A DNA stretch of 64,000 nucleotides from Selaginella moellendorffii (Eukaryota > Plantae > Lycopodiophyta): contig NW_003314323.1 of the NCBI RefSeq assembly GCF_000143415.4, positions 1 to 64,000 of the forward strand, given 5' to 3'. Shown here in pieces: positions 1 through 61,373 of this stretch. The stretch's first letter is position 1, and the number at the start of each line of letters is the position of its first letter. The position numbers were made by a program, and so were the translations under genes. A model generated the notes under the pieces. It saw only the letters and a program-made list of their open reading frames with translations, made no database searches and had not been told where the DNA came from.

Positions 1-19
1 CAGGGCATCAGTATGCATT

Positions 20-1300
20 TTGGGTCAAAATTGCATGAGCCCACACGCTATAAAGTTTACCTGTACCAAAAATAGAAACAGCTTTATTTACTTGGGAATT
101 TAAGTGGTTGAGGCATTTTTAAACTTACAAACACATGCCCTACTTACATTCCTTTGGTTGCCTAAAATTCAAAAATATTATAAACCTTTCTTTTTGCATT
201 TTCAATGTTTTCAATTATGGTTTTTGATTTTCGTAGGACCAGCCTAGTAATCTATTTGCATCCCGTCATGTTTATAGCTAGCTTTCGTTCGTCCCCTTCG
301 CTAGCCTGAGATACATCTGCTCGGCATCTGCCTCTTACAGCATTTGCCCAGAAAGGGCATCTTTCTTCACGCAGCATTTGCCACATGTTTAGGGTTTAGG
401 GTTTAGCAATTCAGTAGCTTGATAAACATGCAAATACAGAACTTGATGCAAAATCCTTTGATATGTCACAATGCCCCTAGGACCATAAACACATTTCAAT
501 AGAGAGGGTCCTTTCATTTCATAACTCCTTACGTAGATCTTGGTGAAACCAGAGTTAGTGAAGTTAGTTTCTTGTGATCCCGCATCTGATTGTGATGTCC
601 CTTTGCAGTTTCGATGGAAAGGTCAATGCACACCAAACTGTAAAATCTTGGAGCAAAATAACGGTCGGATCTATGGCAAATGCCCCTGAAACATTGTAAG
701 GCTCGTGTGGTCTCATGTGGTGTCCGATCGAGATGCTTCTTTGCAGGGTCATCAAGAAAGACATTGTATACCATTCTGTAAAATCTAGTTGCGATCTAAC
801 GGTTGAATCTCCAGAAAACTCAAAAAAATCTCGCGCGTGTCAGAATATCCTAGGAATATACTCCTATGTGCCCCTGAAAATGACATGCGGCCCCACGCCA
901 TTCAAGAGATAATGCCAGATGACGCCGAGAATTTTTTGGTGCATTTTTTGGGTTCAAAATTGCATGAGCCCACACGCTATAAAGTTTATCTTTGCCAAAT
1001 AGAGAAAAGTTTATCTGTGTCATGTGAGGTAGTTACAGTCCTTTGTGCTTGGCATCTGCCTCTTGCAGCATTTGCACTGAAAGGGAATTTTTCTCCATTC
1101 AGCATTTGGCCCTGAAAATGGCATGCGCCCACACGCCATTCAAAGAATAACGCCACAGGACGCCTGGATTTTTGGGTTTAAAATGTTTAGGGTTTTTTAG
1201 GTTTTTTCAAAATATTTTGGGTCCAACGTTTTTTGGGTTTCTTTGGTTCAAAATTGCATGAGCCCACACGCTATAATATTGATTTGAGAGAAAAATAGAA
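20..1300 (+). repeat. Degenerate tandem/dispersed repeat units (~240 bp) each carrying the 22-bp dyad
   Basis: TCAAAATTGCATGAGCCCACACGCTATAA occurs near 25, 954 and 1248; CCCTGAAAATG-motif-TCAA near 872 and 1110; GGCATCTGCCTCTTRCAGCATTTGC near 323 and 1051. Confidence 0.85.
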
Positions 1301-1621
1301 ACAGATAGAATTTCTTTATTTAGCTGAACATCTGCCATTTTTGGAAATACAAGATGCTTTGGAATATCCAATCATGCATGGTATAAATATAGCGAGGGTA
1401 TTAAATGATATCCCAATCATGATCTTTCTTTTGGATTTCGCGTGCATGCAGTCCGAGGAATGATGACGTTGCGGATTTCTTTTGGATTTTGCGTGCTTGC
1501 ATGCGCGCGGCAATCCAGAAATTAATGGTGGCGCCCAAGTAAGAGGAATGATGACGCGGCGGGATTACCAACCGTTGTGACATTTCGCGCGTGTGAGGTT
1601 AGGTTTTGCATTTTGCTTTGT

Positions 1622-1780
1622 ACTCGCGCTCGCACACTCGCGCTCGCGCTCGCATCACACTTGCGCTCCCGCTCGCATCGCGCTCCCACTCGCGATCACG
1701 CTCACTTCTCTACAGGTTTCTCGTGTGCATCGGCGTCCACTCGCGCTTGCATCACACTCGCGCTCGCATCGCGCTCGTGT
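1622..1780. repeat. CpG-rich low-complexity (CTCGCG/CTCGCA)n tract
   Basis: Repeated ACTCGCGCTCGC units upstream of the large gene. Confidence 0.75.
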
Positions 1781-2245
1781 GCATCGGTGTCCACTTCAAG
1801 ACACACCCAGTTTGTAACTTCGCCGCCAACTCCGCCGCCCACTCCACCACCCACACGCAGCCCACTTGGCGTCCCGGGAGATTTCAGCACCACTCTCCAA
1901 CTGTAAGTGGCAGAGTAGCCTTGCTGCTACGATCCGCTGCACACACAGTGCACATTCGCCAACGAGTCCGGCCTCGATTGTCACGGCCTCCATTCGGCTT
2001 CAAATGGTAAGTCTTTTAGACCAAGTAGAAAATGGCATGAGGCCACATGCCATTCAGTAGCAACATTGGCATGCACCGATTGGGCTCTCGAGTGCAGTCC
2101 GGTTACAGATGGCGTGTAGCCTCACGCCATCTTAGGATGCAGCCTCAAGACATCTGATGCAGTGGTGAATGGCGTGTGGCCTCACGTTATTTCCAGCTGC
2201 TAGCTTTTCATCTGTCAGCTCTAATTGTTGTGCATTTTTGAACAG

Positions 2246-5200
2246 GCGAGGAATTGCATTCTTCTTCCAGCCACTGTCAATGTGGATGCAGAGAAGGGGG
2301 AGGAGCTCACCAGTTGGACTTTCGGGATGGAAGGCGAGGATCTGATGCTGTACAACACAGATGGTGGGAGAAAAGAATGCATGGGGATCCTCATCCAAGT
2401 GACAGACACTCCATGCAGTTCCATGCAAGAATATGGACTGGCACTTGTGGTAGAGACAGCGTCCGCCTTCAAGATCCACCTTGCACATCCTAGCGGCTTC
2501 CCGGAGGGGGGCAGCGGCTATGAGGAATTCCTAGAGGGAGCTAGGGAGAGGTTGTCCAGGAGGCCCACAATTTCAAAGACGCTGCGGGTCTATGAAGATC
2601 ACATGGAATCCACGGACCTCACCTACGGCGATGTTCAAAAACTATATTCCAACATTGAGCCGTTGAGAGTGCCTCCAGTTTGCGAAGCGAAGGGGAAGGG
2701 GGTCGATCTGGAAACTACCCCGAAGCAGAAAAGGGTGGTCAAGCTCAAGCCGACGTCCGACTCTGCTGCTCCAAAAAAGAAGCTACTCGGTGATGCCATT
2801 GCCTCGGGTTCGAACACTACACCCACCAAAAAGAAGAGCCGCAAAGAGCAGAAAGAGCAAGAAGAGGCAGCAAAAATCGTCGCAGATAATAGTACTTGTT
2901 ACTATTCCAACAAAGTATATACAATCGATGTGAGCCGTATCGAGATCCAAAGCAAATACAACCACAGGCTAGTATCTGATGAGTGGGTGGAGAAACTGAA
3001 GCAGAAGATGCTGGCAAGTCCAGTAACACCCGACATCGCAGACGTGATCCCCTACTACCGAACAATGAAGGGCGAGACGAGGTTTCCAGACTTGATCAAT
3101 AGGAAGGTGTTGGACGATCAGAACATCCGGTTCTATGCCGTCTCCGGGCAGCATTCTAGCTTGGCGATGCAACAGATAGTTGTGGATATTATGGTGGGCG
3201 AGGAGGTGAAGAAAGTCTTCAAGACAAGAGTTGTCCGCCTGATAAAAGGCAACTCGCCCCTCCGATCTATCATATACATCTCCCACGCGCAAAATGTCAA
3301 GCAAGAAACGTGCTACAAATCGGGTCTGCACGAGACATTGGCACGAACACGGAAGCTCTGGGTTCAACTGAAGAAGCCACAAAAACCAGGACAAGGACGT
3401 GCACTAGCAACTAGCGCCTGGCAGGTAAGCCTCGTTGCATGTGGCATAGCATGTGGCCTCACGCCATTTCCATTGCAGGAATTCTCGAGTCTTCTCTCGA
3501 AAACACTGGGGGTCAATGACACACTCAGCATCCATAACATTCTACTCGCGACAAAAGTTGTTTTTGACAAATGGGTAGATGTGCTGAGGAGGTACCATGA
3601 TGGGGAGTTGCTAAACTCAATGGGTGTGGAGGACGGCCGGAAGCCCAATGATTTGAAGCTCAACGCCTTGCGTTTCTCGCGGTCTCTAGACGACGACGAC
3701 CTTCTGACAGTGGCTAATGCTCTTCTACGTGGTGAGGTAGTCTTCAACAAGACCAAAATGACTCCCGGCCATATTGTGACATACGAGGACTTGTGCACGA
3801 CTCTGAGAGCTCGTGCGCTATTGAAGGATTGGATCTTCGAGCAAGTGGCCGTGGCGAGGGTGAGCATCGACACCACGCAAGAGATGATGGAAGAGCTGGA
3901 CTTGTCAAATGAAGACATCGACGAGTACGTGAAGGGGGCCCCCAAGTTCATCGATCTGCTGCGGGATGCCACGAAAAGTAAAGCTGAGAAGTTGGATCAG
4001 TATCCAAATTTCATTAAGAGGGATATCGACCGCCGGCTTCAGAAACAGCTCGACCCCGCAGCAGAGGCCTATCGAGAACCTTACCGGGTATACGTGAATT
4101 CGGATGAGGATCAAAGGTGGAGGAGCATCGTTTCCTGCGGAGATGAGCAGGTCAAGAACATCTTTTGTGTGATGGACTTCACAAACGAGGAGATCACTCA
4201 TGCAGACGAAGTCAGCTCCATCATTGACTTAATGGTGGGACTTGCGGAGGTGGAATCTTCAGTCCACTATATGATCTACGACTCCGAATCCTATCACAAG
4301 TTCTGGAAGGCCTTGAACGAGGTGAAGGCTCGGTTGAAAGGCAAGGAGATGCGGGAGATCCATGGGATAATGGCTAAGAAGAAGATACCGACGAATGTCC
4401 GCATCTTCATAGTCGCCCTTGTTATTGGTCCTGCAGCAGAGTGGGACTGGAGTGACTTCCCAGCTTCGTTCAACAAAGCCGATCGAATTGATCTGAGGGA
4501 GGTCAATTTACCCGTGCCTGAGGAACTGAAGACGGCTATGGAGCTTTCGAATCCAAAGAAAGCTCCAGGTGCAGCATGGGAAATGCTCAGCTGGGTCTTC
4601 AACGCAATAGCGGGTGACTCCAAGGGCAAATGCGTTGTCGAGTACAACTGCGGCGGACTATTCTTTCGAGCCGCACTACTCAAGGGTGTCCCGTGTGTTG
4701 CGGTGACAAACTCCATTGAAGAGGTGACTTCAATGGAGCATATAATTACAGTTGCCAAAGAAAAACAGTATCTTCTCTACGAACCTGGTGAGTACGCACT
4801 TTAAGTTTAAATGTTATCTCACAAGCTCTGTATGCAGGAGCGTGGCCACCCCCAGATGCTGAAACGGCGTTAACAGCTACTGATGTTAGGCCGAGGTCAC
4901 AACCTGCACAAGGTAAGGTCACGTGAGGCCTCACGCCATTTTGATTATAGATCGTTGTGAATATTCAGACACGAGGACTGAAAAGCGCACTGGTGGCGCG
5001 TCGAAGAAGGACAAACAGACAAGCAATAGGAAAAAAGGAGGTACAAATTATATTTGCAATGGCGTGTGGTCTCATGCCATTCCTTGCAGGAGACACTTCT
5101 TCAAAGGCAAAACAGGCAAGCACCAGCCAAGCTCAAACTGACAGTGGTCATAAAAAGCGAAAGCACGTTGGACAGTCGTCGGGATCAGAGGCGTTTGATT

Positions 5201-7609
5201 CGAAAAGGAAGAAGGGCAACGAAAAGATGATAGGTAATGCCTCGCGGTTATGGCGTGTGTGCTCATGCCATTCATTGCAGATCAAGGGCTGAGTGAAAGG
5301 AGCCAGTCACCACCTTCTGACTCAGATTCCTATGGCGGACTCCCCTTCCCCAATCTCAATGGAGAGGTACAATGGATGAGGGATGCTTTTCAAGTCAGGG
5401 CCACGTTTTTCTCATCTCGTCGTCTTCGAAGGGTGCAAGAACGTGCAGAAACCATGTTAAGACAGTCGGGTGAGGATACGGTCCTAGGTCACGCACTAAA
5501 ACAGGCTATGGATGTCTTGTATTTTGAGATGGAGACTCGGCCAGATGATTTTTCCAAGATGGTCCTGGAAAAACAAGCAATCCAGCCTGAGCAGCCTATG
5601 GAAGAAATGCAAGAGGGGGATGAGGAGCCAGAGAAAGATAATGAGCAGGAAGAGCAGAAGGACGAAGAGGAGGACAAAGAAGAGGAGGACGAAGAAGAGG
5701 AGGACGAAGAAGAGGAGGACGAAGAGGACTTGGATGGTCCTCACAATGGTGACGATCACAATAACGACGATGACGATGATGACGATGATGGCCAGCCTGA
5801 GGTGGCCAAAGAGCAGCGGAGGAAGGTCATACAAGACAAACCATCAGGTAAATAATAGTACATCCATTCCTAACCTTTTACCATTTCTAACATTGTCCAT
5901 GTAGGTCGCAGAAGAAATGGTAAGTAGAGATTATTCAGTTGAATTAAGATACAAACTCTAGCCTTTAGTGTCGAGGAAGGATAGTGCCAAGCAAGGGTCG
6001 AAACGTATGTCCAATCCTTCAGAATCAGCAGTGCGCCCAAGTGATATCGGTCCTAGTTCCTCAATAGCAGTTGATGGTAAATACAGTATAGTCGATTCAA
6101 TGTGCTAATGAGTTTGTTTTTAGTTGCACGGGAGGATACCATCTCAATCGAAGGGAGATATTTGGACATGCATATGGATCCGCCAGTGGACTCTACTTGC
6201 CTGCAAGAGTCATCAGAGCTGGTGGAGGCTACTATCCATATCAACGCCAAGCAAGCTGACCACGCTCCACTTGATGCTGCCCATACCACTGAGTCAATCT
6301 TGTCCACGTATCCAACTGACGGTGACCAGGCGCCATTGGACCCGCATGAGGCCGCCCCAGCCGCCGAGCCGGTCGTATCCTCATTTCCAACGTGTGCCCA
6401 ATCGTCTGACTACGCGCCGTTGGAACCTCCCTACACCGCCCCTGCTGCCTGTTCGGTCATGTCCACTTTGCCAACGGAGGCACCAGCTGAAATGGCGTGT
6501 GATCACACGCCATCGGAACCACCCCATGCCACTGTTGAGCCAGTTGTACCAGAGTCTACAGCTGAAATGGCATGTGCCCACACGCCATCGGATGCGATTG
6601 ACCCCACATTGCAGAGGAGAGTATTTCCGCCCTTCACGTTTCCTCGACCAAAACCCTCTGAACGACCATCGGGAGCACCATTCGCTAATATTGTAGATGG
6701 TAAAATTGACTTGTACCATTTTTTATGCTAACGCATTTCATTTCAGAGTCACGGCGAAAGTACTGTATCGTTTTTGATCTGAACGGTGTCCTTTTCTCCC
6801 ATGAGCGTGGCTCGTCCTCGAATGTCACTGCACCCTCCAAAGCCTGCGGTCGCAAGTTGGTCAAAAGAGACAGATTCACATTAATCACACGGGAGAAACT
6901 GCGGGATCTAATAATGACCATGCGACACTTAAAACAGAGGGCCGGGTTCAATTTGCAATTGGGAGTTTGGACATCCATGATGCGCCACAATGCATTAACG
7001 TTGCTACAGATGATGCACGATCAGACGCGAGTAATATTACCATTTGACTTTCTCCTAACGCAGGAGGATTGCTTGACTATGGTCCATGTGAGGGGTAGCA
7101 AGCCCATCTTCGTCAAGGCAGAGGCTGTAGTGATGAACTGGACTGCTAGGTCAAGTGAAATCCTCATCATCGATGACTCGCCGATTAAAACTGCAGCGAA
7201 CACGCACACATATGCAGTGCACCCCATCTCTTGCAGTATGGAAACTAGGGAGAAGAAACCGTATGTTCTGGGGGACCTTGCAAAACGGCTTGAAGCGATG
7301 GTGATAGAGAACCGGCCAGTCCAGGAGGTGGCTGCAGAAATCAACCAAATGGCAGATGGAACGGTATATCAGAAGCCATTTGATCGGACAGACACCAGTC
7401 ATCATTTATGGCATGTATATTGTCTAGCCAAGCACTATCCGCATCTCCATAATCTGCTCAACCGGATGGGTTCTTCGACCACTGAACATGAGCGTGGACG
7501 TATTAGAGAAGAGATGGCATTACTATTGGGTTTAAATCCTGATAGTGTGGAGAGTGATGAAATTCCAAGATTATTGTATAGGCGTTGGAGGCAAAAAATA
7601 ACAGTCTAA
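2246..7609 (+). CDS. Multi-exon protein: ParB/Srx-like domain + degenerate N6/N4 DNA MTase-like domain + acidic tract + FCP1/HAD-like domain; 5' exons unresolved
   Basis: GT-AG introns at 3425-3478, 4788-4837, 4913-4950, 5041-5089, 5234-5280, 5848-5904, 5920-5968, 6077-6123 and 6700-6746 join the separate ORFs into one open frame of ~1,640 codons. Motifs: FYAVSGQHSSLAM; GKCVVEYNCGGLFFRAALLKG; CIVFDLNGVL...IIDDSPIK. Confidence 0.72.
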
Positions 7610-8040
7610 GATGGCATGTATTTATTTAAAAATGTAACTTATTATGGCATGGGGTTCCATGCCATTGTATTAATATTAAAAGACAATTCTTTGAGAGGAT
7701 TTGCATTATACTAGAAGTGTTACAGCATGTTATTGGAAGTCTACGAAGTTGTTTTATTAATAAGGGGAAAGTAAAGATTGAATGGGGACTTGGGCTCCAC
7801 CTAGACTCGGAGCAACTGAGCCAATATTAAAAGGATGGAAAGAAATTGGACGACGATGACAAGGAGAAGAGAGAGGTGAAGCAGTGAGAAGTGATTGAGT
7901 AGACATTTCCTTGTTTAAAATAAAATGGCATGTGCCTCAATGCAGTTGAATTTTGTTATATTTATATACTATATAAAGGTTTGGAAACCTTATTTTACAA
8001 GTGGGATAATGACAATTCCCACTTTAACGAAATAGAGCTT

Positions 8041-11000
8041 GGATCCTTTAGCCTACGACACCTCAAGGAGTTGGTTCCTTACAACTCCACCACCCATAGA
8101 AGAAGTTCGATGCCCACATCAAACGTCTCTTTTATCCTACGACTTGTTGACCATGTCTTCGGGGGCATCCCCCCACTTAGTGGTGTGCCTAAGTTAGCCT
8201 CCTTGGCCAAGAGCCCATGACAACGAAATATAGATGTCCCTATATCCCTCACCTCACCACGCCCTAGTATGGGGTCGGGACTTGAACCCAACCTTGCTTT
8301 ACTAGGGGGTTGGGACTTGAACCCAACCTCCGTAGAATATGTCTACGGATTCGACATCCCCGCAGGGAGTCAGGCATAGTTCCCTACACCTAATCGACCT
8401 AGCTAACCCATGCTAATTAGCTTACCTTTAGCGCGCCTTTGGGTCCCAACATGTGTCATTGCTCAACTTCACAAATTGATACTTTCATTGAACTTTGCAT
8501 AAGTACATAGAGTTATGCCTTGCAGAAATTCCTCCACTAGATCTCGCACGTTTGCTAGGTTCTCCTCCAATTCCCATGTTGCTTCGCAGTGTGGAAATCC
8601 TTTCCACTTCACATGGAACTCTCTCACTTTGCATCATTTTCACTTATTCTTGCATGCATTGAGGATGGCCTCCACTTCGTATTCTTCTTCCTCTTGGATA
8701 ACCTCAAGTAAAGGTCTTATTTGGTCCTTACGAAACGGGTCCTCAAAGTACGGCTTAAATAAGTTCACATGGAACACTGGGTGCATTTTCCCCATCTCTC
8801 AAGGAAGTCAGAGACGGTAAGCCACTTTACTAATTCGTGCCTCAATCTCGTAAAGCCCCACGAACCTGCTTAAGAAACTCAAGATCAATTCATTTATAAG
8901 AATATATGCATTTTTACCTTTGGGTCAACTTCCAGCTAATCCCACTTGGTAGCCTGAGGTTCTTAGTGTTCAACCACACCTTCTCCCTAGCTTGGAACTC
9001 TACATCCCGGCGCTTCTAGTTCGTGTACTTAGTTTGCCTTTGTTGAGCCCGTTCTAAGGAATCCCTCACTAGATTCCAAATGTTGAGCCTTTCCACCGTG
9101 AATGCCTCCACTACGGGTAACTCTCCATGATATTCGGCCATGCCAAGTTCCATAGGACCTTCAATAGCTTGCCCATTGATCACTTCCCATGGATTCACCC
9201 CGATACTCGAATGTGGTGAGTTGTTATAACACATTTTCGCAAGTCCCAAATGACTTACTCAATCGTTCTGGTCTCCCGAGACATAGCATCGCAAATAATC
9301 CTCCAGCTGCCTATTCACCCTTTCTATTTGTCCGTCTGTCAAGAAGTGTTAGTGCCATCAAACTTGACTTAATACCCAATACCTGTCTGTGGGTGATAGG
9401 CTGTGCTGAATTTCAACTTGGTGCGATACTGTTCCAGGAGAGTTCTCCAGAACCTACTGATGAAGATCTTATCTCGATCCGAGATAATCTCTTTCGGCCT
9501 TCCCCGCACTTGAACCACTTGTTCGAAGAACAGCTTTGCCACACCTTCCGCATTCACTTTCGTTGTAGTGGGTATGAAATGTGCCATCTTCGAAAATCAG
9601 TCCACCACCACGAATATCGCATCAAACCCCTCACTTGGGGGGAGTCCCGTGATGAAGTTCATCGTGAGACATTTCCACAGATGATCTGGAATTGGGATGC
9701 TTTGTAACAAGCCCCCACTAGCCTTAGTCATGACTTTGACCTGCTGACATGTTGGACATGTCTTTTACATAGTCTTGGACGTCTTTAGCCATATCTGGCC
9801 AGTGATATTTCCTCTTAAGTAAGCCCATCGTCTTGGGCACTCTGCTGTGTCCCGCAAGAGGTCCATCATGACACTTTTCTAAGGCTACCTTCCTTAGTTC
9901 CCCTTTTGGAACATACACCCTCGTTTGCTTGTAATAAATGAGTCTGTTGTGTTCCATATAGTCTGTTTTCTCTTCCGTTGGTAGCTCACCTCTTTGGTGA
10001 GCTTCCCGTGCCTCTAGATTCCTCAGCAACACTTTTTGTGCTAGACCATCATTCTCATATGCTGTCCGCACATCATCCCAAAAGGTTGTTGTCGTGCTGG
10101 ATATTACTAACTTCAAGCTCGCTTTTTGACTTAGCGCATCTACCACGATGTTGCTCTTCCCAGGCTTGTACAAAATCTCGCAATCAAACTCAGCCAACGC
10201 ATTGGCCCACCGACCCTGTTTCCCTCTCAGGTCAGGTTGTGACAACTGTTTTGTTGCCATATTGTCCGTGTAAACCTTGAAGTGTCTCCCAAGGTAGTGT
10301 CGCCACTCCTTGAGCGCCTTGACCACCGCAAACAATTCCTTCTTGTGGGTAGGCCACTTTCGTTGAGCCTTGTCCAACTTCTTCAAGAAGAACACTACTG
10401 GATGGTTGTCTTGCTTCAAAACTGCACCCAACGCAAAGTCTGAAGCATCCGTTTCTACCTCAAAGTCTTTACCAAAGTCTGGTAACGCTAACACGAGAGC
10501 CTTCCTCAACTTCCTTTTGAGGTGGACAAATGCCGCATCACATTCTGCTATCCATACCATCTTCCCTTTTCCCATTTGGTCCGTTAAGGGTAGGGCTACT
10601 CTCGAATAGTGTCTAATAAACTTTCGGTAGTAGTTGCATAGCCCCAAGAATGCTCTTAACTCGTGTACATTTGATAGTCACTCCCAATTCTGGATTGCTT
10701 GGACCTTCTTAGGGTCCACCTTGAGCCTATTCTTGCCCACCACATGCCCGAGAAACTTTACCTCTTGTTAAGCAAAGTCACATTTGCTCTCTTTAGCATA
10801 CAGCTGGTGTTCCCTTAGTTTCTCAAACACCTTTGTCAAGTGTTTGGCATGCTCCTCTAGCGTTTTGCTATAGATCAAGATGTCGTCAATATAGACGACC
10901 ACAAAGTGATCCAAATAAGGTACAAAGATGTGGTTCATCAACACTGAAAATGTTGCTGGCACATTGCATAGCCTGAAGGGCATCACCAGAAACTCAAAGC

Positions 11001-14000
11001 TCCCATACCTTGTTTGACAGGTTGTCTTCTCGACATCTTCCTTTGCTACCCTGATTTGGTAGTATCCTGACCTTAGGTCAATCCTTAAAAAGTATTTTGC
11101 CTTTCCCAACCTATCGAACAGGTCCTCAATCCTTGGAAGGGTACTTGTTCTTCTTTGTATACTTGTTAAGCAATCGTTAGTCTATGCATATGTGCATAGA
11201 TCCATCTTTCTTTTTCACAAATAACACCGACACCCTATATAGCAACTTGTCAACCTAACATACCCTTTGTCCACCAACTCCTCTAGTTGGCGCTTGAACT
11301 TCTTGAGTTCCTTTTCGTTCAAACAATAGGGGGGAAAAACCACCGCCTCAGCACCCTTGACCAGCTCAATCTTATGTTCTATCGGTCGTGTGGGGGGCAA
11401 CCCCGCTGGTAGCTCCTCCGGCATGGTATCTTGGAATTGATCCAACACCCACTGGATCACTAAAGGTACTTCTTCTGTTCCCATTTTTTTGTCACTCTTC
11501 ACCGAGAGTAAGCACAAAAATGCTACCTTGGTTCCTTTAGTGAGTTGTCCTCTCGTGGACACCAGGTTTAAGCATGAATCTTTGGCCTTGCATTGCCCTA
11601 CCTTTAGATCTTGGGCCTCCACCCTGGATCTTCTTCCTTGGGCATTCGCTAGTACCACAAGGTTCCTACCTTGTCCATACAGGGCTACCACGAACTGATT
11701 AAACCAATCCATCCCGAAGATCACATTAAATCCCGCCATGTCCAACACGGTGAAATCCATGTCTACTTTTCAAATCCTTACTTCGACTTTCGCTTGTTAA
11801 AATACCTCATCGGTGCTTTGGCTACCTTGAACAAACTCTATAGTCCTTGGTTCGCCTAGCCGCTGCACCATTAGTCTAGTTTACCAAACTATGTCTACAG
11901 CCACAAAATTATCCGAAGCACCTGTGTCAATAAGGATCTTAACAAAACTACCTCCGAGCTTCCCTCGAAGGGCTAGTAGATGTCGCGAACGACTCTATAC
12001 CAAAGTTGCTCGTGTAATGAGTAACTTTGAGCTAGAGACTGGATCACATACCTCATTTTGGATTTCATTTGACTTAATGGCCATATTGGCTCTGGCCTTC
12101 TTCGGGTAGGGACATTCCTTCGAAAAGTGTCTCGCTTCTCCACAATTGTAGCACACGTGCTGCTAACCGACTTGACCTTCTTATCTGTGGCTTTGTCTCT
12201 TTTTTCTTGACTCCCCCACGTACTTGCTTGTTGGCCACCAGATTTGCCTTTCCGGAACCCCGAAGACTCATTCTTAGAAAAACCCTTTTTGAATTTCCCT
12301 TTGCTATATGTTCCCCTTGGTTTGGCCCCTTTGCTAAATGTGGACCTCAACCCCGTCGTGTTCCCCTTTCGCAGGTTATCATTGAAATGCACCTTGATGG
12401 CCGCATCCAACACTTCTTTGTAGTTGGTCGGGTTTCAACACATCACCTCACTGAGAGCCCAAGTTTGCAAGCCTGATATGAAGGCATGGAACGCATCCAT
12501 ATCCCCCATATCCGTGACAAGTATCCTTTTTGCTATAAACCCATTCACAGACTCCTGAATGGTTCTGGTTTGCTTCAGCCTACTCAGCTCATCTCTTAGA
12601 TGCAGAGTAGCATTTGGAGGAATGTAAGTCGCACGGATCCTCGCCTTCATCATTTCCCAAGTGGCCACCGGTCCTTTGTTGGCCTCTATCATTCTCCACC
12701 AAGACTTGGCATTATTTGCTAAGTATGGTTTTGCACATGGGACCTTCTCTGAGCTCGGTAACTGCAACGCTCGGAAGTAGTCCTCCATATCATAAAACCA
12801 ATCCTCCACCACCTTATAGTCGTTCACTCCCTTGAAGACTGGTGGGGGCTTTGGTTTATACTTGGGAAATGCCTGAGGGACTGATTCCACTTCGGTCTGT
12901 TCGACTTTGTTTGGTTTTGCCTCAGTCCCTGTCGAATGATCCGCACCTTCTGCGCTACCAACATCTGCAGTCTTTTGCCTTTTCTTTTGCTTCTCGTCAC
13001 ACTTTAGGTTGCGTATGAGAGTCTCTAGCAGGGCATTGGTCTGTGCCAATTGTCCTTCTAGAATGTCCAATCGCGCCTTGGACGACCGAACCTCACCACC
13101 AAAATCCTGTTTGGAAATTTCCTCACTGAAGTCCTCCTCATGCAAGGATTCCTCATCCATAGCCTCTTGTTCAACCGGAGGCTCCAGCTCTGGAAGAGGT
13201 TCTGTCTCCGCCTTGGTTCGTTTCCGCCCTGCCTTCGCCATCTCCCAGCAATCCGCCTCTATCCTTCGCTAGAACTGAGGAAAAGGCTCTAATACCAAAT
13301 TGTAAGCCACAAATTTTTCATTTCCAATTTGCCAACTTACCTTGTCTATCCGTCCAACACTGCCTTGGCTTTTGCTAAGTTCCCTCGCCAAGGTTCCCGC
13401 CTACAGTACCAGCTCCTACTTGGTCCTACTTGGTTTCAGCTACTTACTGCACGAGCAACAGAGTGTTAGCCATCCATCCACAGATTCCTAAATCTCTCCC
13501 AATCCCCCTCCCTGGTTTAGACTGGACTTACAGTTCGGCTACACTCCCCGCAGGCACAAGCAGCCAAGCACACCAAGCCTCCAGGTTCTTAACATCCCTT
13601 TGTACCACAAGACTTGATCATGAGACCCTCTAAATCCCAAGTCTTGGGTGCAACACTTGCTTTGGGATGCCAGGGCGAAACACTGTGGCATAATGGCCCA
13701 GTATGGGTACCTCTACCCCCCCTCTTCCATCCTGAAAGGAAAGCCCAAGCCCCTAAGAAGGGCAAAGACCAATGAGTTGCAAGGTACTCAAATGGGGCAC
13801 CACTCCATATGAGCCAGGAGCACCGCAGTCGGTTTCCCTTTTGGGAGTGGGAGCTGCTCTTGAGCACTTCCTAGGGTGGCCCCTTTGGCACCACCCAAGT
13901 CCATGCTCACTCCCACCCAAGGCCTTTTGGCCCTAGTCTCAACCTCAAGTCAGTTTGGAAGCACCACTATAGAGTTCCTTCAAAATTGGTTCTTGAACCT

Positions 14001-14459
14001 TACTATCCCTACTATACTTTTGGAACCCCCTGTAGCCCCCCCCCTAGGAGCGCAAGCTTTGGCTTGACCTATATTAGTACTCGGACTCAGTCTCGGACTC
14101 GATCTTAGACTCAATCTAGGACCCGACTTCGGATTCGGTCTTGGACTCGATCTTAGACTCGATCTCGGACCTGATCTCGGACTCGACTTTGGACTCAATC
14201 TCAAACTCGGTCTCGGACCCGATCTCAGATCTCGGTCTCGGACCCGATCTCAGATCTCGGACTCTGTCTCAAACTTGGTCTCGAACTCGGTCTCCGAGTC
14301 GGCCTCGGACTCAATTCCGGACTCTATCATGAACTCAGTCTCAAAGTCAGTCTTGGACTCGATCTCAGACTCAGTCCCATCCGATGAACTCTTTGTCATT
14401 TCGGTCATGCTTTTGGGGATCCTTTACCTTACGACACCTCGGGGAGTTGGTTCCTTACA
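8041..14459 (-). mobile_element. Decayed Ty3/gypsy chromovirus LTR retrotransposon
   Basis: 5' LTR 13301-14459 (TGTAAG...CTTACA). iMet-type PBS 13286-13297. gag 12435-13241, zinc knuckle, protease IDTGAS, RT YIDD (10768-11109), RNase H/INT (9724-10647). Chromodomain YEVEAIL..VKWKGF..EATWE at ~8520-8690. PPT at 8084-8097. 3' LTR truncated to 8041-8083. Many stops and frameshifts. Confidence 0.93.
14079..14372. repeat. ~12-bp minisatellite (CTCGGACTCGAT-like) inside the LTR
   Basis: More than 20 degenerate tandem units. Confidence 0.85.
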
Positions 14460-14460
14460 G

Positions 14461-15705
14461 AGAGCTTCCAAATCAGGGAAAGGAAAAGTGTCCCTCTATA
14501 AAGCTACACTCTCCGACCTCACTAGATCTCTTGAGCAATCATCAAAAGCTTTGGCTGCACAGGAAGCAAGGTTTGCTGGTACAAGTCCAAACTTAAACAA
14601 GCTTCGAGAGCGGGTTGGTAGAAGGAAAACACCAGCAATAGGGTCTAAGATGGTGGGGGAAGTTGTTATTGGAACTCTTATGGAATCAAGTTATGAACCA
14701 CTTGGGGGCATGAGGACAATGCGTTTGAAGCATCGACAGACATTTGATGGGCCCAACATCACTCCTTCTAGCTTTCACTGTCCAGAGTTTGACTACCATT
14801 CTGTTCCACAACACCGGAGAAAAACTAAAGAACATGGAGTGGAGGAGGTGCCAATTGTTACACAAGTAAATCCAGTGCTAAAGGTTGAGAAGATTATTAC
14901 TCGTGAGCCAATTTTTCATATCAACTGGGCAATTTGAAGAGTCAATACCAAAAGTAATGCATGTTGCTTTGGAATGATTAGGAGTCGAGGCCAGTGTCTT
15001 GCATTTGTGTGCTCAGGTTCAAGTTCTTCAGCAGTACCATGTTTTTGGGGCTGTTGAGATCTAGGGGTAAAGGGCTATCAGTCAAGTTGGATTTACTGTT
15101 GTGGGACTGATGTTACTCATACAAACCGGATCCACAACTCAATTATCTCAAAGCCAAATTCTGTGCTAGAGGAGTGGCCAGTTGAGCGAAGCTACAATCT
15201 TTTGAAAGAAGAGATTGAAAGTTTAGAGAGAGCTGGTTTCAAATTGAAGACTTCCTCAAATGTTCTTATTGATACTGTTATGCCACCAATGTCAACAATA
15301 GACCAGCATACATGACTAGCTAGAAATGGGAAGGCTGTACAATATATATCTTCCATTTCAAAAGGTGCACAAGAGAAGATCAAACTAGCAAAGGCGTTGA
15401 AATGCATAATCACAAAGATAAATTACATCAGTGTTGTGGCTAAGGAATTTGTTGTTGTGACTAAGTCGTCAAAGGGTACGAGCTACACTATCAGAATCTA
15501 TGAAAATCCATCCTATACCTATCCAAATTTTACACAAAGGGAGAATAGAGGAAAGGTATATTTAACCTGCAAGCACATTTATTACATTTTTATGCAAGAA
15601 CTAAACCAAGATCTTAAGGTTGACTATCATATCCATCAAGCAAACTTTGCAATTGCAAAGTTTGAGATAGTGTTCGGATCTATATTTATATTTGTATTTT
15701 ATTGA
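14461..15705 (+). pseudogene. Degenerate SWIM zinc-finger gene remnant, probably transposon-associated
   Basis: GTSYTIRIYENPS...FTQRENRGKVYLTCKHIYYIF resembles a SWIM finger with the first cysteines lost; upstream frame interrupted by stops. Confidence 0.45.
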
Positions 15706-15799
15706 TCAAATTTACTTGGAAATATAGATTAAATCAAATTTTGAAAAATGAAAAAATGTTAGTTTGGGACAAACCAATGTTTTCCTCTAATTTTATAGG

Positions 15800-16546
15800 A
15801 ATTTCAGTTCAAGATTGTGTTGAAGCCTGGACGAAGTCATAAAATGCTTGATCATCTTTCAAGGTTGCTAGCTTCTACTATGGATGGAATTACTGGAGTG
15901 GATGATGAGCTTCCAGATGCTCAACTTTTTCAAGTAGTTAGCGAGGAGGAAGTGGATGTAGAGGTTTTCCAAGTTGAAGCAATACCTGAGTGGTACCATG
16001 AGGTGGCACAATTCTTGTTAAGTGGCAAGTATCCTTTAGATTTTTCTAGTAAAGAGAATAAGCAGTTACTTCTTCAATCTCAGTGCTTCACTTTGATTGT
16101 TAGGCAACTATACCATATGGGAAATGATGAAGTGTTGCAGCAATGTGTGTTAGCTCATAAGGTACCTGAGGTTATTTTTGCATATCATGACTCACCTTTT
16201 GGAAGACATTTTTGTGAGGAAGTTACAATGGAGTTGGTAAAAAGGACAGAATATTAGTGGCCGACTATGCACCAGGATATTTCAAAGTATATGAGAGGTT
16301 GTGATCCATGTTAAAAGACTAAGAAACCATCAAGAAGAGATATAATGCCATTGCAGCCACTTTTGCTAGTATTGCCATTTGAGAAAAGGGGAATTGATTT
16401 TATCAGGCCTTTTCCAGCAAGCAAGCATACTCATTGCAAGTATGTGCTAATTTATACTGACTATGTGACCAAGTGGGCCAAAGTAAAAGCATTGAAGGAA
16501 GATATAGGCAGAAAAGTTGTTGAGTTTTTGTACAAGCAAGTTATTA
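15800..16546 (+). mobile_element. Ty3/gypsy pol fragment (RNase H end-integrase)
   Basis: KPGRSHKMLDHLSRL, YHDSPFGRHF, PFEKRGIDFIRPFP, DYVTKWAK with stops. Confidence 0.8.
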
Positions 16547-17183
16547 TCTGAAGAAGTGCATGCAAGGTCTAACAGTGAAGGTGTTTTGAACATATAATGC
16601 ATCATATACTTTGAAGACATATGTGACTTTTACTTTGTCAAGGCCAAAATGATCTGACAAATTACTTGTTACAGTTGAAGGAGACGCTTGGTGCAACTCT
16701 TAACAAGAAAACTGCAGAATACTCCTGAGCAAATAAGGAGGTAAGATAACATTCTGTTTGGTTAGCACTTTGTTGACAGGTCGCACTTCCATGTAACGGA
16801 CAGTATCCAAGGGCCATAGTGCTCAGATGGAAAGATTGGAGTCAAAGATTGCAGAGTTAAAGGTCCGTTTTTCTTTATGGTTTGTTTGAGGCTGACGCTT
16901 TGCTATTGGCAGACACTGTGTGAGAAACTTGCAACAGACTTGGGGAAAGTTTAAAAGGGCAAACCTCCAGCTAAAAGGCCTCCAGTAAGTAGATGATTTT
17001 TACGTTTCTACTTTTATGATACTGACTATTCATGTAAATTCCAGGTTGGAAAAGAAGTTGGTTCAAAGCGAAGATGACCTTGGATCTGTCCTCCGTCAAA
17101 GAAGATCTCAAAACCGTGGCGCTGGGAACGTCAAAGATCAACTAACTACATGGATCCTCAAATAACGGTTGCTCATTGAGAAG
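16547..17183 (+). pseudogene. TOP1: DNA topoisomerase IB 3' gene fragment with introns (copy a)
   Basis: [36 protein letters not shown](Y); stop and frameshift present. Confidence 0.85.
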
Positions 17184-17464
17184 GTAACCAGGCACTTCGT
17201 ACTTTCATTTCTTTTATTTCTCTTACTGAGGCATGCTGTGGCAGTGGCACAAGCAGCTTTTCCAGTGACTTGACCATGGTATACCATGCTCAACTCAGGA
17301 GATTTGGATCATAGGTTTTTAATTAGTCATTGCTGGCCAAATTCGCGTCGGAGAGAAAAACTTGGAAGAAGGTGACTCCCCCCTGTCAATATAACGTCAA
17401 CACTTGCGAGACTCTATCTCAGTCTTGATGATCATGGTCTCACTGTGAGAACTGGAGGGTAACG

Positions 17465-19384
17465 TCACAGACGAGTGGAGCTGAAGTAGGATCCAGGTAG
17501 TTGCAAGCTGAAGCTTCTGGAGCTACCATCACTTGAAGGTGGTGGCAAGTCAAGAACGTCTATGTTACCTTCGAGCATATCCAGGACGTTTCTCATAGAG
17601 GGCCGGATTTCTGCCTCGAGTTGGATGCACCACAGTCCGATTTTCACGTACCTCTCAGCATCCTTGAGCTCCAAGCCACTGCTAGTGCTGGCGAGATCAT
17701 TGTCCAGGAGCTTGTCGTCAATAAGCTCGACGATGTTGCCACTGTGAAACATGCTCAGCGCGGTTTCGCCTAGGAAGCGCGGTTGTGAGGAGGAAGAGGA
17801 GGAAGAGGAGGATGGAGGATGGAACTGGATGGTGCGCTTGGAGCTGACGAGCTCGAGCAGCACAATTCCAAAGCTGTAAACGTCGGTCTTGTCCGTGACT
17901 TTGGTGTGGAGCCACTCAGGTGCCATGTATCCGGGAGTTCCTCGCATGACAGTCACCACTTGGCTCTTTCCCCGCTCGGCAAGCTTGCTCAGGCCAAAGT
18001 CGGAGATTCTGGCTCGTAAGTTCTCGTCCAGGAGGATGTTTTGAGGTTTGATATCCAGGTGAAGAACTTGCTCCCGGCATCCTTCATGGAGGTATGTGAG
18101 TCCTCGAGCAACATCTATCGCGATTGAGTGCCTCTGATTCCAGTTTAACAGCAGATTTGCTGATCCGCCACCTTTGTCATCATCGTTCTTGGTGAAGATC
18201 CACTTGTCCAGTGATCCATTGGGCATGAACTCGTAGACAAGCAATGCAGCTGGTCCCTGGATGCAAAATCCCCGGAGCTTTACCAGGTTGAAGTGGTGAA
18301 TGCTGCCAATGGACATTACCTCGGCCTTGAACTGCGAGTGTCCTTTCGACGAGCCTTGGATCTCTACGTCCATCTTCTTCACAGCAACGAGGCTCCCATC
18401 CGCAAGCTCTCCTTTGAAGACGGATCCAAATCCTCCAGCTCCAAGCGTGAGCTCGGGATCAAAGTTTCTAGTTGCCATCTTCAAGTCGTGATAGCTAAAC
18501 TGGTGCGGAAGTATCTCATCGAGCCTCATTCCTTCGATGAGCGCTTGCTTTTCCATGCGCCTCCTCCGAGATCTTCTCCACTTCCTGGTTGCTACAAAGA
18601 TTACGACGCTAAGTACCACCCCGGCCACAGCGCTTGCTACCCCAGCGATCACTCCCTCATAATTCTTTTTGCTTCGAATGGACTGTGGAAGATTACTATC
18701 AATGACATTCCAGGTGATATTTCTCAAGATTCCAATGCCTGGATCATACCCAAGCTGCCTCCACACTTGCTCGTTCGCAGCCACAGCGTTTGGAGCACAG
18801 GGCTCCGTGAACGAATGATCCCTGAGACACCCGGCTGGGGAGTAGCATTCAGCCACCATTCTAGCGACCGCAGTCCGTCCGTTTGGAGCTAAAACTTGGA
18901 TGTTTTTCGAGCACAAGCTTCGGTCTTGGGTATACCATCCAGTGGCGAGCGCTGCCATGGGTTCCATATTCCATTGCGAGGATGTGCACGGCCTGAGAGA
19001 CCCCGGATTTGAGAGGTTGAAGCTTGTGACATAGAGGACGGCATTGTTGGTCCCTTGTAAATTTGCAGAGCAGATGAAAGTCCTGTAAGCCAGGCCTGGG
19101 ACGCAGCAATTCGGGCAGTCTGGAGCGATGGTGGCATTGAAATTGACTATGGAGGTGGGCTTGCAAGTTTCGGAATCGCTGAGATATGGCTCGGATTGAT
19201 TGCTCGATAGGTAGCAGGATGAATTGCGGAGTGAACGGTTGCCGCTGAGCATGGGCTCCGGGAAACAAAGAGATCCATTCGGGCAGTCGCTTAACGAAGA
19301 ACATACCTGTTGTTGGGCTTGCGAGTGGAAGCTCCTGGTGCTACATAGCACGATCATGAAGCACATGAGAATCGACACCTCCAT
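17465..19384 (-). CDS. Kiwellin-ectodomain receptor-like kinase A (non-RD), intronless, 639 aa
   Basis: Signal peptide; kiwellin/DPBB motifs MAALATGWY...CSKNIQV...NGRTAVA...EC...GC...EPC.PN...VWRQLG; TM segment; kinase GAGGFG, VAVKK, HLDIKPQN, DFG, GTPGYMAPE. Confidence 0.92.
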   Translation of the reverse strand: MEVSILMCFMIVLCSTRSFHSQAQQQVCSSLSDCPNGSLCFPEPMLSGNRSLRNSSCYLSSNQSEPYLSDSETCKPTSIVNFNATIAPDCPNCCVPGLAYRTFICSANLQGTNNAVLYVTSFNLSNPGSLRPCTSSQWNMEPMAALATGWYTQDRSLCSKNIQVLAPNGRTAVARMVAECYSPAGCLRDHSFTEPCAPNAVAANEQVWRQLGYDPGIGILRNITWNVIDSNLPQSIRSKKNYEGVIAGVASAVAGVVLSVVIFVATRKWRRSRRRRMEKQALIEGMRLDEILPHQFSYHDLKMATRNFDPELTLGAGGFGSVFKGELADGSLVAVKKMDVEIQGSSKGHSQFKAEVMSIGSIHHFNLVKLRGFCIQGPAALLVYEFMPNGSLDKWIFTKNDDDKGGGSANLLLNWNQRHSIAIDVARGLTYLHEGCREQVLHLDIKPQNILLDENLRARISDFGLSKLAERGKSQVVTVMRGTPGYMAPEWLHTKVTDKTDVYSFGIVLLELVSSKRTIQFHPPSSSSSSSSSQPRFLGETALSMFHSGNIVELIDDKLLDNDLASTSSGLELKDAERYVKIGLWCIQLEAEIRPSMRNVLDMLEGNIDVLDLPPPSSDGSSRSFSLQLPGSYFSSTRL

Positions 19385-19606
19385 AGTTCAGTAAATACCA
19401 CTCTTCTTGGGCATCATGGAAGTGTCTCTTCGGCCCACAAATTGAAAGTTTGGCAGCTGGCTGCAGGTCAGTGTCAAGGTTTTTCTGCCCTGGCAGGACA
19501 CTAGCAGGCCTGCCTGGGTCTAGCTCCACTTGAGACGGCAAAAGACTTCAGACTTTTTCTAGAGCTTTTAAACCAGTTTACCCGCGACACGTTTGCAATT
19601 CCAGCC
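19385..19606. promoter_or_regulatory. 222-bp divergent intergenic region (putative bidirectional promoter)
   Basis: Separates the two RLK start codons; homologous copies at ~22623-22924 and ~43426-43736. Confidence 0.65.
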
Positions 19607-21403
19607 ATGGATCATCGCAGCAGCACTTTCTTCGCGCTCGCGATGATCTCACTCGTCAGCGCCACCGCGCAGCATTTCTCCTCCTCTTGCGGCACGAGAT
19701 GCGACTCTAGGCGCGATTGTTCTGGCGGCCTCGTTTGCAATCCTGTTAGCAAGACCTGCGATGGCGATCCAGGAGCTAGCACCCTTTCCTGCCCAATTCC
19801 CGGCTGCGAGCCCGCCCAGAGCTTCATCTACTCGAATGCCACCGCCCACGATCCCGAGTACTGCGTCGACAACAACACCTACCAGTTCTTCAATTGCTCG
19901 CCTAAAGAGCAGTCTCTCAACTTCGCGGCTCTCTACTACACCGAGCTGGAGGGAATCCCCACGGCATGCAATCGGTCCACGCCTTACAAGAACTCGGAGC
20001 TCCTGGCAAACATGGCCACCGGATGGTTTGCCAGTGGATCCTCGTGCTTCAAAGAGATTGTGATCACGGCAGAGAATGGGATGAGCGTCACGGCGACGGT
20101 GGTGGACATTTGTGCATCAACGATCGGGTGTAGCCCATTGACTGGATACTACGAGCCGTGCACGCCCAGATCGCTGGGAGGGACGAGAGGTGTGTGGGAA
20201 GCGCTGGGGCAGACGTATTTTGATAATGTGTTGCAAGTCACTTGGAAGTGGAAGGGCGAGGATTCGAAAAAACGCACTCTTTTCATTGCACTGGTTTCTA
20301 GTGGAGCGCTCGTTGCCTTGGCGCTCTTAGGCATTTTGTGGTGGAAGGTCGTGAGACGGTCCAATGCCGCCAAGAACAAGCTCCATCTGGGGGATCTCAC
20401 GGATGCCCCGCGGCAAATCAGGTACCAAGAGTTGTATCGAGCGACCAAGGGATTCCAGAGCAAGGTGGGAGAGGGAGGGTTTGGGACTGTGTTCAAGGGG
20501 ACGCTGCCCAGCGGAGAGATTGTGGCGGTCAAGAGGATTGGCGGTGGATCGCGGCAGGGGGACAAGCAATTTAAAGCGGAGGTGATGTCGATTGGCAGCA
20601 TCCATCACCTCAATCTCGTCAAGCTGGTTGGATTTTGCCTGCATTCTCGCCACAACTTACTCATCTACGAGTTCCTCGCCAATGGCTCGCTGGATAGATG
20701 GATTTTTGCCAAGGACAAGTATCTGCCCTGGGCAACCAGGCTTTCCATCGCGCTCGACGTCGCTCGAGGGCTTGCGTATCTCCACGATGGATGCCGCGAG
20801 AAGGTACTCCATCTAGACATCAAGCCCCAGAACATCCTCCTGGACGAGAAGATGAATGCCAAAATCGCCGACTTTGGATTCTCCAAGCTCATTGACAAGG
20901 ACAAAACTCATGTCGTGACAGTCATGCGGGGTACGGTGGGATACATGGCTCCCGAGTGGCTCCACTCTCGTGTGACGGACAAGACGGACGTCTATAGCTT
21001 TGGGATCGTCCTCCTGGAGCTCGTCTGCTGCATGAAGGCCGTGGAGTATCCCTCGGACTCACAGATGGACGTTGGGTTCCTCGCCCAGACTGCTTTCAAC
21101 AAGCTCGACAGTGGAAACGCCATGGACTTGGTGGACGATCGGCTGGTCAAAGCCGAGGACGGTGGTGGTTTATCCTTGAGTGGCTTCGAGAACATCATCC
21201 GGATCGGGCTATGGTGTGCACAGGAGGATCCTTTGCAGCGACCAACGATGTCTGTGGTGGTGAAGATGCTCGAGGGTGCCATGGATGTGTTGGCGTTCCC
21301 TCAGCTGGAGAGACCCGCTGCACAGGATTCATCGCTCCTGGTGAGCAGCAGCGAGAGCTCGGGATTGCAAATCTCCATCTCGGTCTCGGACTTGGCTCGC
21401 TAA
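19607..21403 (+). CDS. Kissper-Kiwellin-ectodomain receptor-like kinase B (non-RD), intronless, 598 aa
   Basis: Signal peptide; kissper-like CGTRCDSRRDCSGGLVC...CDGDP; kiwellin ANMATGWF..C...NGMSVTATVVDIC...GC...YEPC...VWEALG; TM segment; kinase with HLDIKPQN. Confidence 0.92.
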   Translation: MDHRSSTFFALAMISLVSATAQHFSSSCGTRCDSRRDCSGGLVCNPVSKTCDGDPGASTLSCPIPGCEPAQSFIYSNATAHDPEYCVDNNTYQFFNCSPKEQSLNFAALYYTELEGIPTACNRSTPYKNSELLANMATGWFASGSSCFKEIVITAENGMSVTATVVDICASTIGCSPLTGYYEPCTPRSLGGTRGVWEALGQTYFDNVLQVTWKWKGEDSKKRTLFIALVSSGALVALALLGILWWKVVRRSNAAKNKLHLGDLTDAPRQIRYQELYRATKGFQSKVGEGGFGTVFKGTLPSGEIVAVKRIGGGSRQGDKQFKAEVMSIGSIHHLNLVKLVGFCLHSRHNLLIYEFLANGSLDRWIFAKDKYLPWATRLSIALDVARGLAYLHDGCREKVLHLDIKPQNILLDEKMNAKIADFGFSKLIDKDKTHVVTVMRGTVGYMAPEWLHSRVTDKTDVYSFGIVLLELVCCMKAVEYPSDSQMDVGFLAQTAFNKLDSGNAMDLVDDRLVKAEDGGGLSLSGFENIIRIGLWCAQEDPLQRPTMSVVVKMLEGAMDVLAFPQLERPAAQDSSLLVSSSESSGLQISISVSDLAR

Positions 21404-25071: not shown

Positions 25072-25404
25072 NNNNNNNNNNNNNNNNNNNNNNNNNNNNN
25101 NNNNNNNNNNNNNNNNNNNNNNNNNNNNNNNNNNNNNNNNNNNNNNNNNNNNNNNNNNNNNNNNNNNNNNNNNNNNNNNNNNNNNNNNNNNNNNNNNNNN
25201 NNNNNNNNNNNNNNNNNNNNNNNNNNNNNNNNNNNNNNNNNNNNNNNNNNNNNNNNNNNNNNNNNNNNNNNNNNNNNNNNNNNNNNNNNNNNNNNNNNNN
25301 NNNNNNNNNNNNNNNNNNNNNNNNNNNNNNNNNNNNNNNNNNNNNNNNNNNNNNNNNNNNNNNNNNNNNNNNNNNNNNNNNNNNNNNNNNNNNNNNNNNN
25401 NNNN
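25072..25404. other. Assembly gap (333 N)
   Basis: Run of N. Confidence 1.
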
Positions 25405-29354: not shown

Positions 29355-29822
29355 CTGTCTGTTGATGATTACATGGAATCGGGATCTGTCAGCAAAGTGC
29401 TAACCAAACAGAATTTTCTCTTACCTCCTTATTTGCTCAGGAGTATTCTGCAGTTTTCTTGTTAAGAGTCGCACCAAGCGTCTCCTTCAACTGTAACAAG
29501 TAAATCGTTAGATCATTTTGGCTTTGACAAAGTAAAAGTCACCTACATCTTCAAAGTATATGATGCATTATACGTTCAAAACACCTTCACTGTTAGACCT
29601 TTGCATGTACTTCTTCAGATGGGCATTAAGATTAGAAGTATCTAACTTATCAAAGAGGTCAACCCCTTCCTTTTTCCCTGTGTAACAAATAGCTCATCTC
29701 AATGAGGAAAACACAAGTCACAACATACCTTTCTTAAAATTGTGTACAGCATCATATACCTCTTTGTTTACAAGCACGGTGTTTTGGTACCTTGTGGAGT
29801 CTTTACCTAGAAAATCAAACTG
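29355..29822 (-). pseudogene. TOP1: TOP1 fragment (copy b)
   Basis: Inverted homolog of 35444-35900 (FDFLGKDS, DLFDKLDTSNLNAHLK). Confidence 0.8.
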
Positions 29823-36308: not shown

Positions 36309-36647
36309 GTAACCAGGCACTTTGTACTTTCATGTCTTTTATTTCTCTTACTGAGGCAGGAGATTTGGATCACAGGTTTTTAATAAGTCATTGCTGGCCA
36401 AATTAGCGTGGACAATGAAAGTAGAACCCAACTTCAGATTTTGTGAGGCTGATGGTGGTGCGGAAGAAGACCCTTGATTCTTTGAAATATATATTGTCTC
36501 CGGTATGCTTCCTCGTTCCCACTGGCTAGAAGTAGAGAGAAAAACTTGGAAGAAGGTGACTCCCCTCTGTCAATATAACGTCAACACTTGCGAGACTCTA
36601 TCTCAGTCTTGATATCATGGTCTCACTGTGAGAACTAGAGGATAACA

Positions 36648-61196: not shown

Positions 61197-61373
61197 TCGC
61201 AGCTAGGGCAAGCGATCTGGATGGACGAAATTCTGGATCTGGAGCAGCGATCGCCGACCGCAAGGAGCCACAGCGTAAGGCTTTGCTCCTCTGGGATTCC
61301 CGCAGCTCGGATCTACGCGGCTCGGCGGAGGAGCTGATCGTTCGATCCATCCAGGGTTTCGATCGGCGCAGCG

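Follow-up and report, generated by a model that had tools for sequence, protein, structure and literature searches.

A likely transposon-borne gene of Selaginella moellendorffii is predicted to encode a ParB-like, methyltransferase-like and NIF/FCP1-like protein

We analyzed a 64,000-nucleotide (nt) stretch of the Selaginella moellendorffii genome (assembly GCF_000143415.4, contig NW_003314323.1, positions 1 to 64,000, forward strand), hereafter the window. Near its left end we find a real, intact gene (as predicted) that is likely transposon-borne, is built from known parts and belongs to a little-annotated family of non-seed plants. Its predicted product joins a ParB/Srx-like domain, a methyltransferase-like domain, an acidic tract and a NIF/FCP1-like domain (Table 1). 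The reading we tentatively favor, at somewhat less than an even chance, is that this ten-intron gene sits on a recently multiplied DNA-type element, and that its protein would bind a palindrome of the element and regulate the element's chromatin or transcription in a VANC-like manner, its methyltransferase fold being predicted to be inactive.

The longest single open frame in the gene region has 859 codons (2225-4804), with shorter frames further 3′. An earlier note on this DNA had proposed that nine short GT-AG introns join such fragments into one stop-free frame, and in silico they do. Removal of the nine introns from positions 2246-7609, together with an upstream ATG micro-exon, yields 4,911 nt that end in a TAA codon (7607-7609) and encode 1,636 amino acids (aa) without an internal stop. 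The splice sites were chosen manually among candidate donors and acceptors; the ends of all ten predicted introns are canonical, and those inside 2246-7609 are 47-57 nt long. Retention of intron 5920-5968 would break the frame at aa 1123. Independent backing of the model is partial: at the homologous locus L001 (about 19% identical), a GT..AG intron in phase 0 falls at the same position as 3425-3478, and several homologous open reading frame (ORF) calls end at this point. Acceptor 2245 also has outside backing, from one contig of run X2, whose RNA status is a guess; since that contig joins it to a different donor, at 2174 (depth 4, 29-letter side), the start of the predicted gene is uncertain.

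We also searched about 12% of each of three raw RNA runs labelled as the same species. Almost all of the matching reads (198, 121 and 253) fall on an rRNA-like piece of 40 nt (1900-1939), and most of them run on into other sequence; a few variant reads extend to 2584, and there is a trace on the acidic repeat. The earlier note had looked to junction reads for its introns, and none is listed for any predicted intron in these runs; splicing of the 1,636-aa model is therefore a prediction. In the sampled RNA, expression of the gene is very low or nil. The piece at 1900-1939 (plus strand) resembles, over about 40 nt, the 3′ hairpin or end of eukaryotic large-subunit rRNA (Rfam RF02543 positions 3338-3373, a weak match with E 0.42), has a GTAAGT donor-like site at 1903 and apparently occurs in other copies too. 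It may be a captured fragment or a relic of a ribosomal DNA insertion.

A HMMER search with the protein core gave 16 matches at E<=0.001, two of which were discarded as repeat artefacts. Named family members come from S. moellendorffii, Calypogeia fissa, Riccia sorocarpa and Adiantum nelumboides, the remainder being unnamed metagenome- or run-derived proteins; no seed-plant name occurs among the named family matches. Adiantum P0032 (1,246 aa) and Riccia P0042 (1,064 aa), themselves gene predictions that were annotated independently, have the same domain order as the window protein: N-terminal domain, basic linker, GQHS domain, helical domain, methyltransferase-like domain, linker and NIF domain. 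For S. moellendorffii the relative comprises four records, which form a small cluster on two scaffolds, and its gene model ends after the methyltransferase-like domain. When the Adiantum core was used as a query, 10/10 matches came from A. nelumboides and one cluster held 20 members, as expected for a transposon. In the ESM Atlas, two Streptophyta clusters (813 and 1,673 aa, with 62 and 55 members) scored 0.97 and 0.93. The earlier judgment that this is not a standard plant gene agrees with a family of non-seed plants that is multicopy in a fern.

With moderate confidence, the methyltransferase-like domain is a putative homolog of beta-class enzymes. A Pfam scan of the window's own protein gave no methyltransferase match, but two relatives matched PF01555, both under the Pfam cut-off (P0042, E 5.8e-4; L001, E 7e-4), and the family profile matched M.RsrI at E 0.013. 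HHalign gave the domain 93.8% (E 1.8e-7) against templates picked by likeness to L001, with 20 controls at or below 1.6%; a repeat against a second phage set was weaker (7%). The motif order is that of the beta class, with IV ahead of X and I. Asp627 occupies the motif IV position with PPY gone, and 7/7 aligned members keep this Asp alone (DFTN, DAAH, DLTH, DANS, DSAN, DLRR and DATT). Motif I, the S-adenosylmethionine-binding FxGxG, is likewise eroded: in the stretch NPKK...VVEYNCGG (aa 752-787) EYNCGG replaces DPFxGSG, and relatives have DFFSGG, DVFACG, DVCTGG, DINTGG and EYGCGG. The fold is predicted to be catalytically inactive. The degenerate beta-class methyltransferase lacking FxGxG and DPPY that the earlier note had recognized by eye was thus recovered through the profiles of relatives, the one weaker repeat aside.

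The C-terminal region (6710-7606) matches PF03031 (NIF) at 25.9 bits, above the gathering cut-off of 21.8 (E 9.3e-6), which bears out the FCP1/HAD fold suggested earlier from DLNGVL (aa 1360-1365) and IIDDSP (aa 1490-1495); a WTS motif is also present. Like FCP1/SCP/NIF HAD phosphatases, the domain keeps the motif I Asp, the motif II Thr/Ser and the motif IV DD. It differs from them in an incomplete motif I, DxDx(T/V), whose second Asp is Asn (DLNGV here, DLNGL in the fern relative), and in its fusion to a transposon-type protein, and would be a putative phosphatase. The aspartate/glutamate tract and the SGQHS motif (aa 301-305) could be located as well, as could every other motif cited in the earlier note.

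For the SGQHS-containing domain, ParB/Srx identity is plausible but unproven, and is suggested by language-model look-alikes only. The closest named one in ESM is DUF3723 (0.95, 187 shared features), followed by ParB_N (0.92, from a cluster in which this annotation covers 35% of members) and DUF6551 (0.90). Unlabelled cnidarian and basidiomycete ESM Atlas clusters also score 0.95, a hint that DUF3723 may be part of a broader mobile-element family in eukaryotes. For the 631-aa core, the first look-alikes that carry a name are phage clusters of ParB-N6_N4 methyltransferases (0.79), which we take as a lead. G, H, R, N and R are invariant across the family alignment of the domain, and the nucleotide-binding Arg of box II GxxR (the ParB P-motif) is replaced by Ser or Thr, giving G[QL]H[ST] in 12/12 aligned members. 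According to the available text of a recent survey, this Arg is required for nucleotide binding in ParB folds (10.1101/2025.10.10.680097). The predicted structure of the ParB-like part has a predicted local distance difference test score (pLDDT) of about 30-50, and fold searches gave no clear match. Of the earlier proposal of a ParB/Srx fold with GQHS, the motif and the look-alikes stand, whereas neither fold searches nor profile comparison (see below) recovered it. A helical domain of about 200 aa separates the ParB-like from the methyltransferase-like domain.

An interrupted palindrome, ATGGCRTG-N6-CAYGCCAT, has 17 matches in the window at up to three mismatches, against 0.66 expected and a post hoc shuffle maximum of 3. 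Sixteen of the copies form an array across the gene and its surroundings, with seven in introns (695 bp), two in one exon (4,911 coding bp) and seven in flanks, or 14/16 in introns or flanks. Introns at 4913, 5041 and 5234 carry one copy each, the exonic copies (6492 and 6567) lie in low-complexity linker coding sequence, and two flank copies lie near the right end of the element. Each palindrome arm holds a CpG, the variants of which are CA/TG, a pattern suggestive of methyl-cytosine decay. Together with the element boundary, which like the array is absent from the earlier note, the array points to a likely transposon gene.

That boundary, an apparent right end, is seen in run X3, in which a contig of 1,699 nt with 5 differences matches 6404-8040 and then continues in sequence like that at 12700 (49-letter side). 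In the window itself, the truncated start of a long terminal repeat (LTR), adjoined by gypsy-type pol frames, lies immediately to the right. From the right end, the LTR truncation and the multicopy relatives, we infer that the element is likely a recently multiplied DNA-type transposon. Across 1-8000, DNA-type contigs show about 99% identity, one of 5,260 nt carrying 37 differences. Contigs of 1-8000 have a depth of about 240 in run X4 compared to 13-18 for contigs at 14647-15596, which is a hint, depth not being copy number. Structural variants of the copies concentrate in the repeat-rich part at 400-1300. Of 15 coding substitutions in run X1, 12 are non-synonymous and 3 synonymous, with no stop; the 12 rows listed, out of 22, contain three indel events in coding sequence (15, 9 and 1+2 nt), all of which keep the frame. 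Since the copies are about 99% alike and most substitutions non-synonymous, young copies fit better than strong selection. The intact frame had been read earlier as recent activity or selection; the former is favored and the latter fits less well, though the indels keep the frame. The observed-to-expected CpG ratio (CpG o/e) is 0.73-0.93 in the element vs 0.57, 0.29 and 0.11 in adjacent relics.

The closest parallel to the VANC-like reading is VANC21, which, in the portion of the paper available, binds motifs accumulated in the introns and termini of VANDAL21 (PMC5735166). As with VANC of VANDAL/Mutator-like elements, as far as that text goes, a transposon accessory gene coincides here with a short motif gathered in introns and termini; the motif, however, is a 22-bp palindrome rather than a 9-bp motif in tandem arrays. 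Pfam scans gave no match to the VANC domain, VANC sequences themselves not having been directly compared. We propose that the ParB-like, helical and methyltransferase-like module would read ATGGCGTG-N6-CACGCCAT and perhaps sense methylation of the palindrome CpGs; a palindromic site would suit a dimeric DNA binder. The acidic tract may contact histones, and the NIF domain may act on transcription machinery, for instance on a phosphorylated protein like the RNA polymerase II tail. We count in favor of this reading the frame, the shared domain order, the multicopy fern relative, the confinement of the palindromes and their gathering in introns, the alternative flank at 8040, the DUF3723 likeness, the CpG o/e, and the loss of PPY in all aligned family members, for which the likely inactive domains of DIRS1 transposons (see below) offer a parallel.

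Several points weigh against it. Coding-region reads were almost nil in the three RNA runs. The palindrome consensus was derived from the same copies that were then counted. In HHalign comparisons with phage and chromosomal ParB, the ParB-like domain reached 0.3-0.7%, within shuffled controls, where a positive control reached 97%. The second X3 contig with another flank, which runs from 8038 into 15668, has a side of only 22 letters. No transposase was found among the ORFs of 1-8040, and the left end is absent within the window, off which the element runs; the palindrome binder could instead be a transposase encoded to the left. Finally, CpG o/e is 0.74 also in a second gypsy element and a receptor-kinase-like ORF, so the element is unexceptional and might just be young.

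Arrays of palindromes are a typical target of transposases, and this underlies the main rival, rather unlikely in our estimate, in which the gene is transposon cargo. The palindromes would then be CACTA subterminal-like transposase sites or recombinase half-sites around the 6-bp spacer, and the protein would have a separate role, for example in host transcription via NIF. The seven flank copies, two of them near the right end, suit this explanation, but the seven in the gene's introns and two in coding sequence are distant from the ends and more VANC-like. Dispersed palindromes are also reminiscent of parS. The protein might accordingly help to move or transmit the element, as a ParB-like clamp gated by nucleotide that would load at parS-like palindromes and organize an excised or replicating intermediate, by analogy with Starship DUF3723. 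The ParB_N and DUF3723 look-alikes, and the phage look-alikes of the core as a lead, point this way; the family-wide loss of the P-motif Arg and the failure of profiles to detect ParB homology make it quite improbable.

Two further explanations question the transposon or the gene model itself. A domesticated host gene or segmental duplicate, with the repeats as promoter or intron regulatory sites, would account for an intact frame with ten introns, an intron position common to a distant homolog, a relative of four records on two scaffolds and frame-keeping indels. We consider it very unlikely given the excess of non-synonymous differences, the near lack of RNA reads, the alternative flanks at 8038-8040 adjoining the truncated LTR, and the 20-member fern cluster. 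Least probable in our view is that two or more shorter genes (the core ending at 4804, NIF separate) were fused by manual splice choice. The lack of junction reads, middle exons of low complexity without homolog support and the shorter S. moellendorffii model would fit such an artefact, but the ten canonical introns, tightly sized where internal, do not, and independently annotated fern and liverwort models fuse the core to NIF.

Table 1. Coordinates of the predicted gene and of the element that likely carries it
Feature	Position	Strand	Basis or remark
Palindrome array, 16 copies of 17	30-7946	.	consensus search
Predicted ATG micro-exon	2004-2006	+	sequence
First intron, 239 nt	2007-2245	+	carries 3 palindromes
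N-terminal domain, aa 2-140	2246-2662	+	loose alignment with relatives; no family assigned
ParB/Srx-like domain, aa ~223-394	2909-3424	+	family alignment, ESM look-alikes
Introns	3425-3478, 4788-4837, 4913-4968, 5041-5089, 5234-5280	+	GT..AG, 47-57 nt
Segment between ParB/Srx-like and methyltransferase-like coding parts	3479-4066	+	
Beta-class N6A/N4C methyltransferase-like domain, aa 591-830	4067-4786	+	profile comparisons through relatives
Three small exons, basic S/T/P-rich linker	4838-4912, 4969-5040, 5090-5233	+	
Acidic D/E tract, aa 1016-1100	5544-5798	+	D+E = 56%
Introns	5848-5904, 5920-5968, 6077-6123, 6700-6746	+	GT..AG, 47-57 nt
Low-complexity linker exons	5905-5919, 5969-6076, 6124-6699	+	two palindromes in coding sequence
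Last exon: NIF/FCP1-like HAD domain, aa ~1350-1540, and small C-terminal region	6747-7609	+	Pfam, fern/liverwort alignment
8-bp-stem hairpin	7999-8024	+	just before right end
Inferred right end of element	about 8038-8040	+	X3 contigs leave window sequence there
Truncated LTR start, gypsy-type	8041-8083	-	91% like 14417-14459; cut at 8041

Within the element, duplicated 60-75-bp blocks bearing the palindrome occupy 1-1310, where other copies have lost 773-1312 or 405-1170, or carry 926-1150 duplicated in tandem. A CTCGCG-rich tandem array lies 5′ of the gene (1623-1790) and differs among copies, with 17 nt inserted at 1704 or 43 nt skipped at 1626-1670. To the right, the decayed minus-strand gypsy-type LTR retrotransposon at 8041-14459 has its left LTR cut after 43 bp by the element. 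It is followed by a decayed plus-strand frame (14452-15696, CpG o/e 0.29) with a C-terminal pattern that is SWIM-finger-like by eye (no Pfam SWIM match), a retroelement integrase-like relic (15700-16600, CpG o/e 0.11) and a segment (16546-17500) repeated at 29349-29620 and 35645-36683. Receptor-kinase-like ORFs or fragments were recognized by eye at 17468-21400, 28202-29362, 36939-37865 and 42845-43381, the last a partial duplicate of 17468-19387. An ArfGAP-like host gene, also identified by eye, has overlapping open frames on both strands (61206-63539), and an assembly gap of 333 N spans 25072-25404.

Several known systems share parts with the protein. Phage and prophage ParB-N6_N4_Mtase fusions (PF02195 + PF01555), described as phage-enriched in the available text of 10.1101/2025.10.10.680097, likewise have a ParB-type domain N-terminal to a beta-class methyltransferase; the word 'plant' is absent from that text. 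The plant protein differs in its helical insert, in its eroded DPPY, FxGxG and GxxR Arg, in its acidic tract, NIF domain and spliceosomal introns, and in that its ParB homology is not reached by profile. DUF3723 (PF12520), to which the ParB-like domain comes closest in ESM, is described as a conserved cargo gene of Starships in the accessible part of 10.1101/2021.12.13.472469; it too is carried by a eukaryotic mobile element, although Starships are fungal. Pfam gave no PF12520 match in 18 family members, and a DUF3435 captain was not seen in the window. Marchantia MpDN4MT1, which also brings a methyltransferase fold of prokaryotic N4C/N6A type into a non-seed plant, is active and keeps TSPPY in the available account (10.1101/2021.02.12.428880), whereas the present family lacks this motif and embeds the fold in a multidomain, multicopy protein. 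In the text available of Iyer et al. (PMC4738411), chlorophyte ParB-HTH-Dam proteins exemplify eukaryotic methyltransferase domains from phage ParB-terminase loci, and DIRS1 transposons carry likely inactive ones; these, however, are Group-2 enzymes fused to a ParB HTH or a retroelement polyprotein, and the main text, so far as available, does not mention Selaginella. Retrotransposon DAMs are described, with no mention of ParB in the available part, in 10.64898/2026.05.21.726589, and Replitrons in that of PMC10288648. We found no description of the present architecture in the literature, a scope without subscription papers and Repbase; the supplements of PMC4738411 and 10.1101/2025.10.10.680097 could list such proteins.

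A bolder reading, which we regard as unlikely, is that of an undescribed element class in non-seed plants. In it a phage-derived ParB-methyltransferase module would serve as a sequence-specific reader at parS-like CpG palindromes in introns and ends, sensing their methylation with its dead methyltransferase fold, and the acidic tract and a C-terminal-domain (CTD)-phosphatase-like domain would avert silencing, independently of VANC and with a relationship to Starship DUF3723 cargo. The family extends across lycophytes, ferns and liverworts under database labels that say only 'hypothetical' or 'FCP1 homology domain', and it likely marks a transposon group not yet classified; a link to DUF3723, whose role as Starship cargo is unexplained, is possible. 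If the proposed function is true, prokaryotic DNA-modification parts would have been reused by plant transposons as non-catalytic readers, giving a plant element a second, unrelated route to counter DNA methylation, for which a candidate target site is already known.

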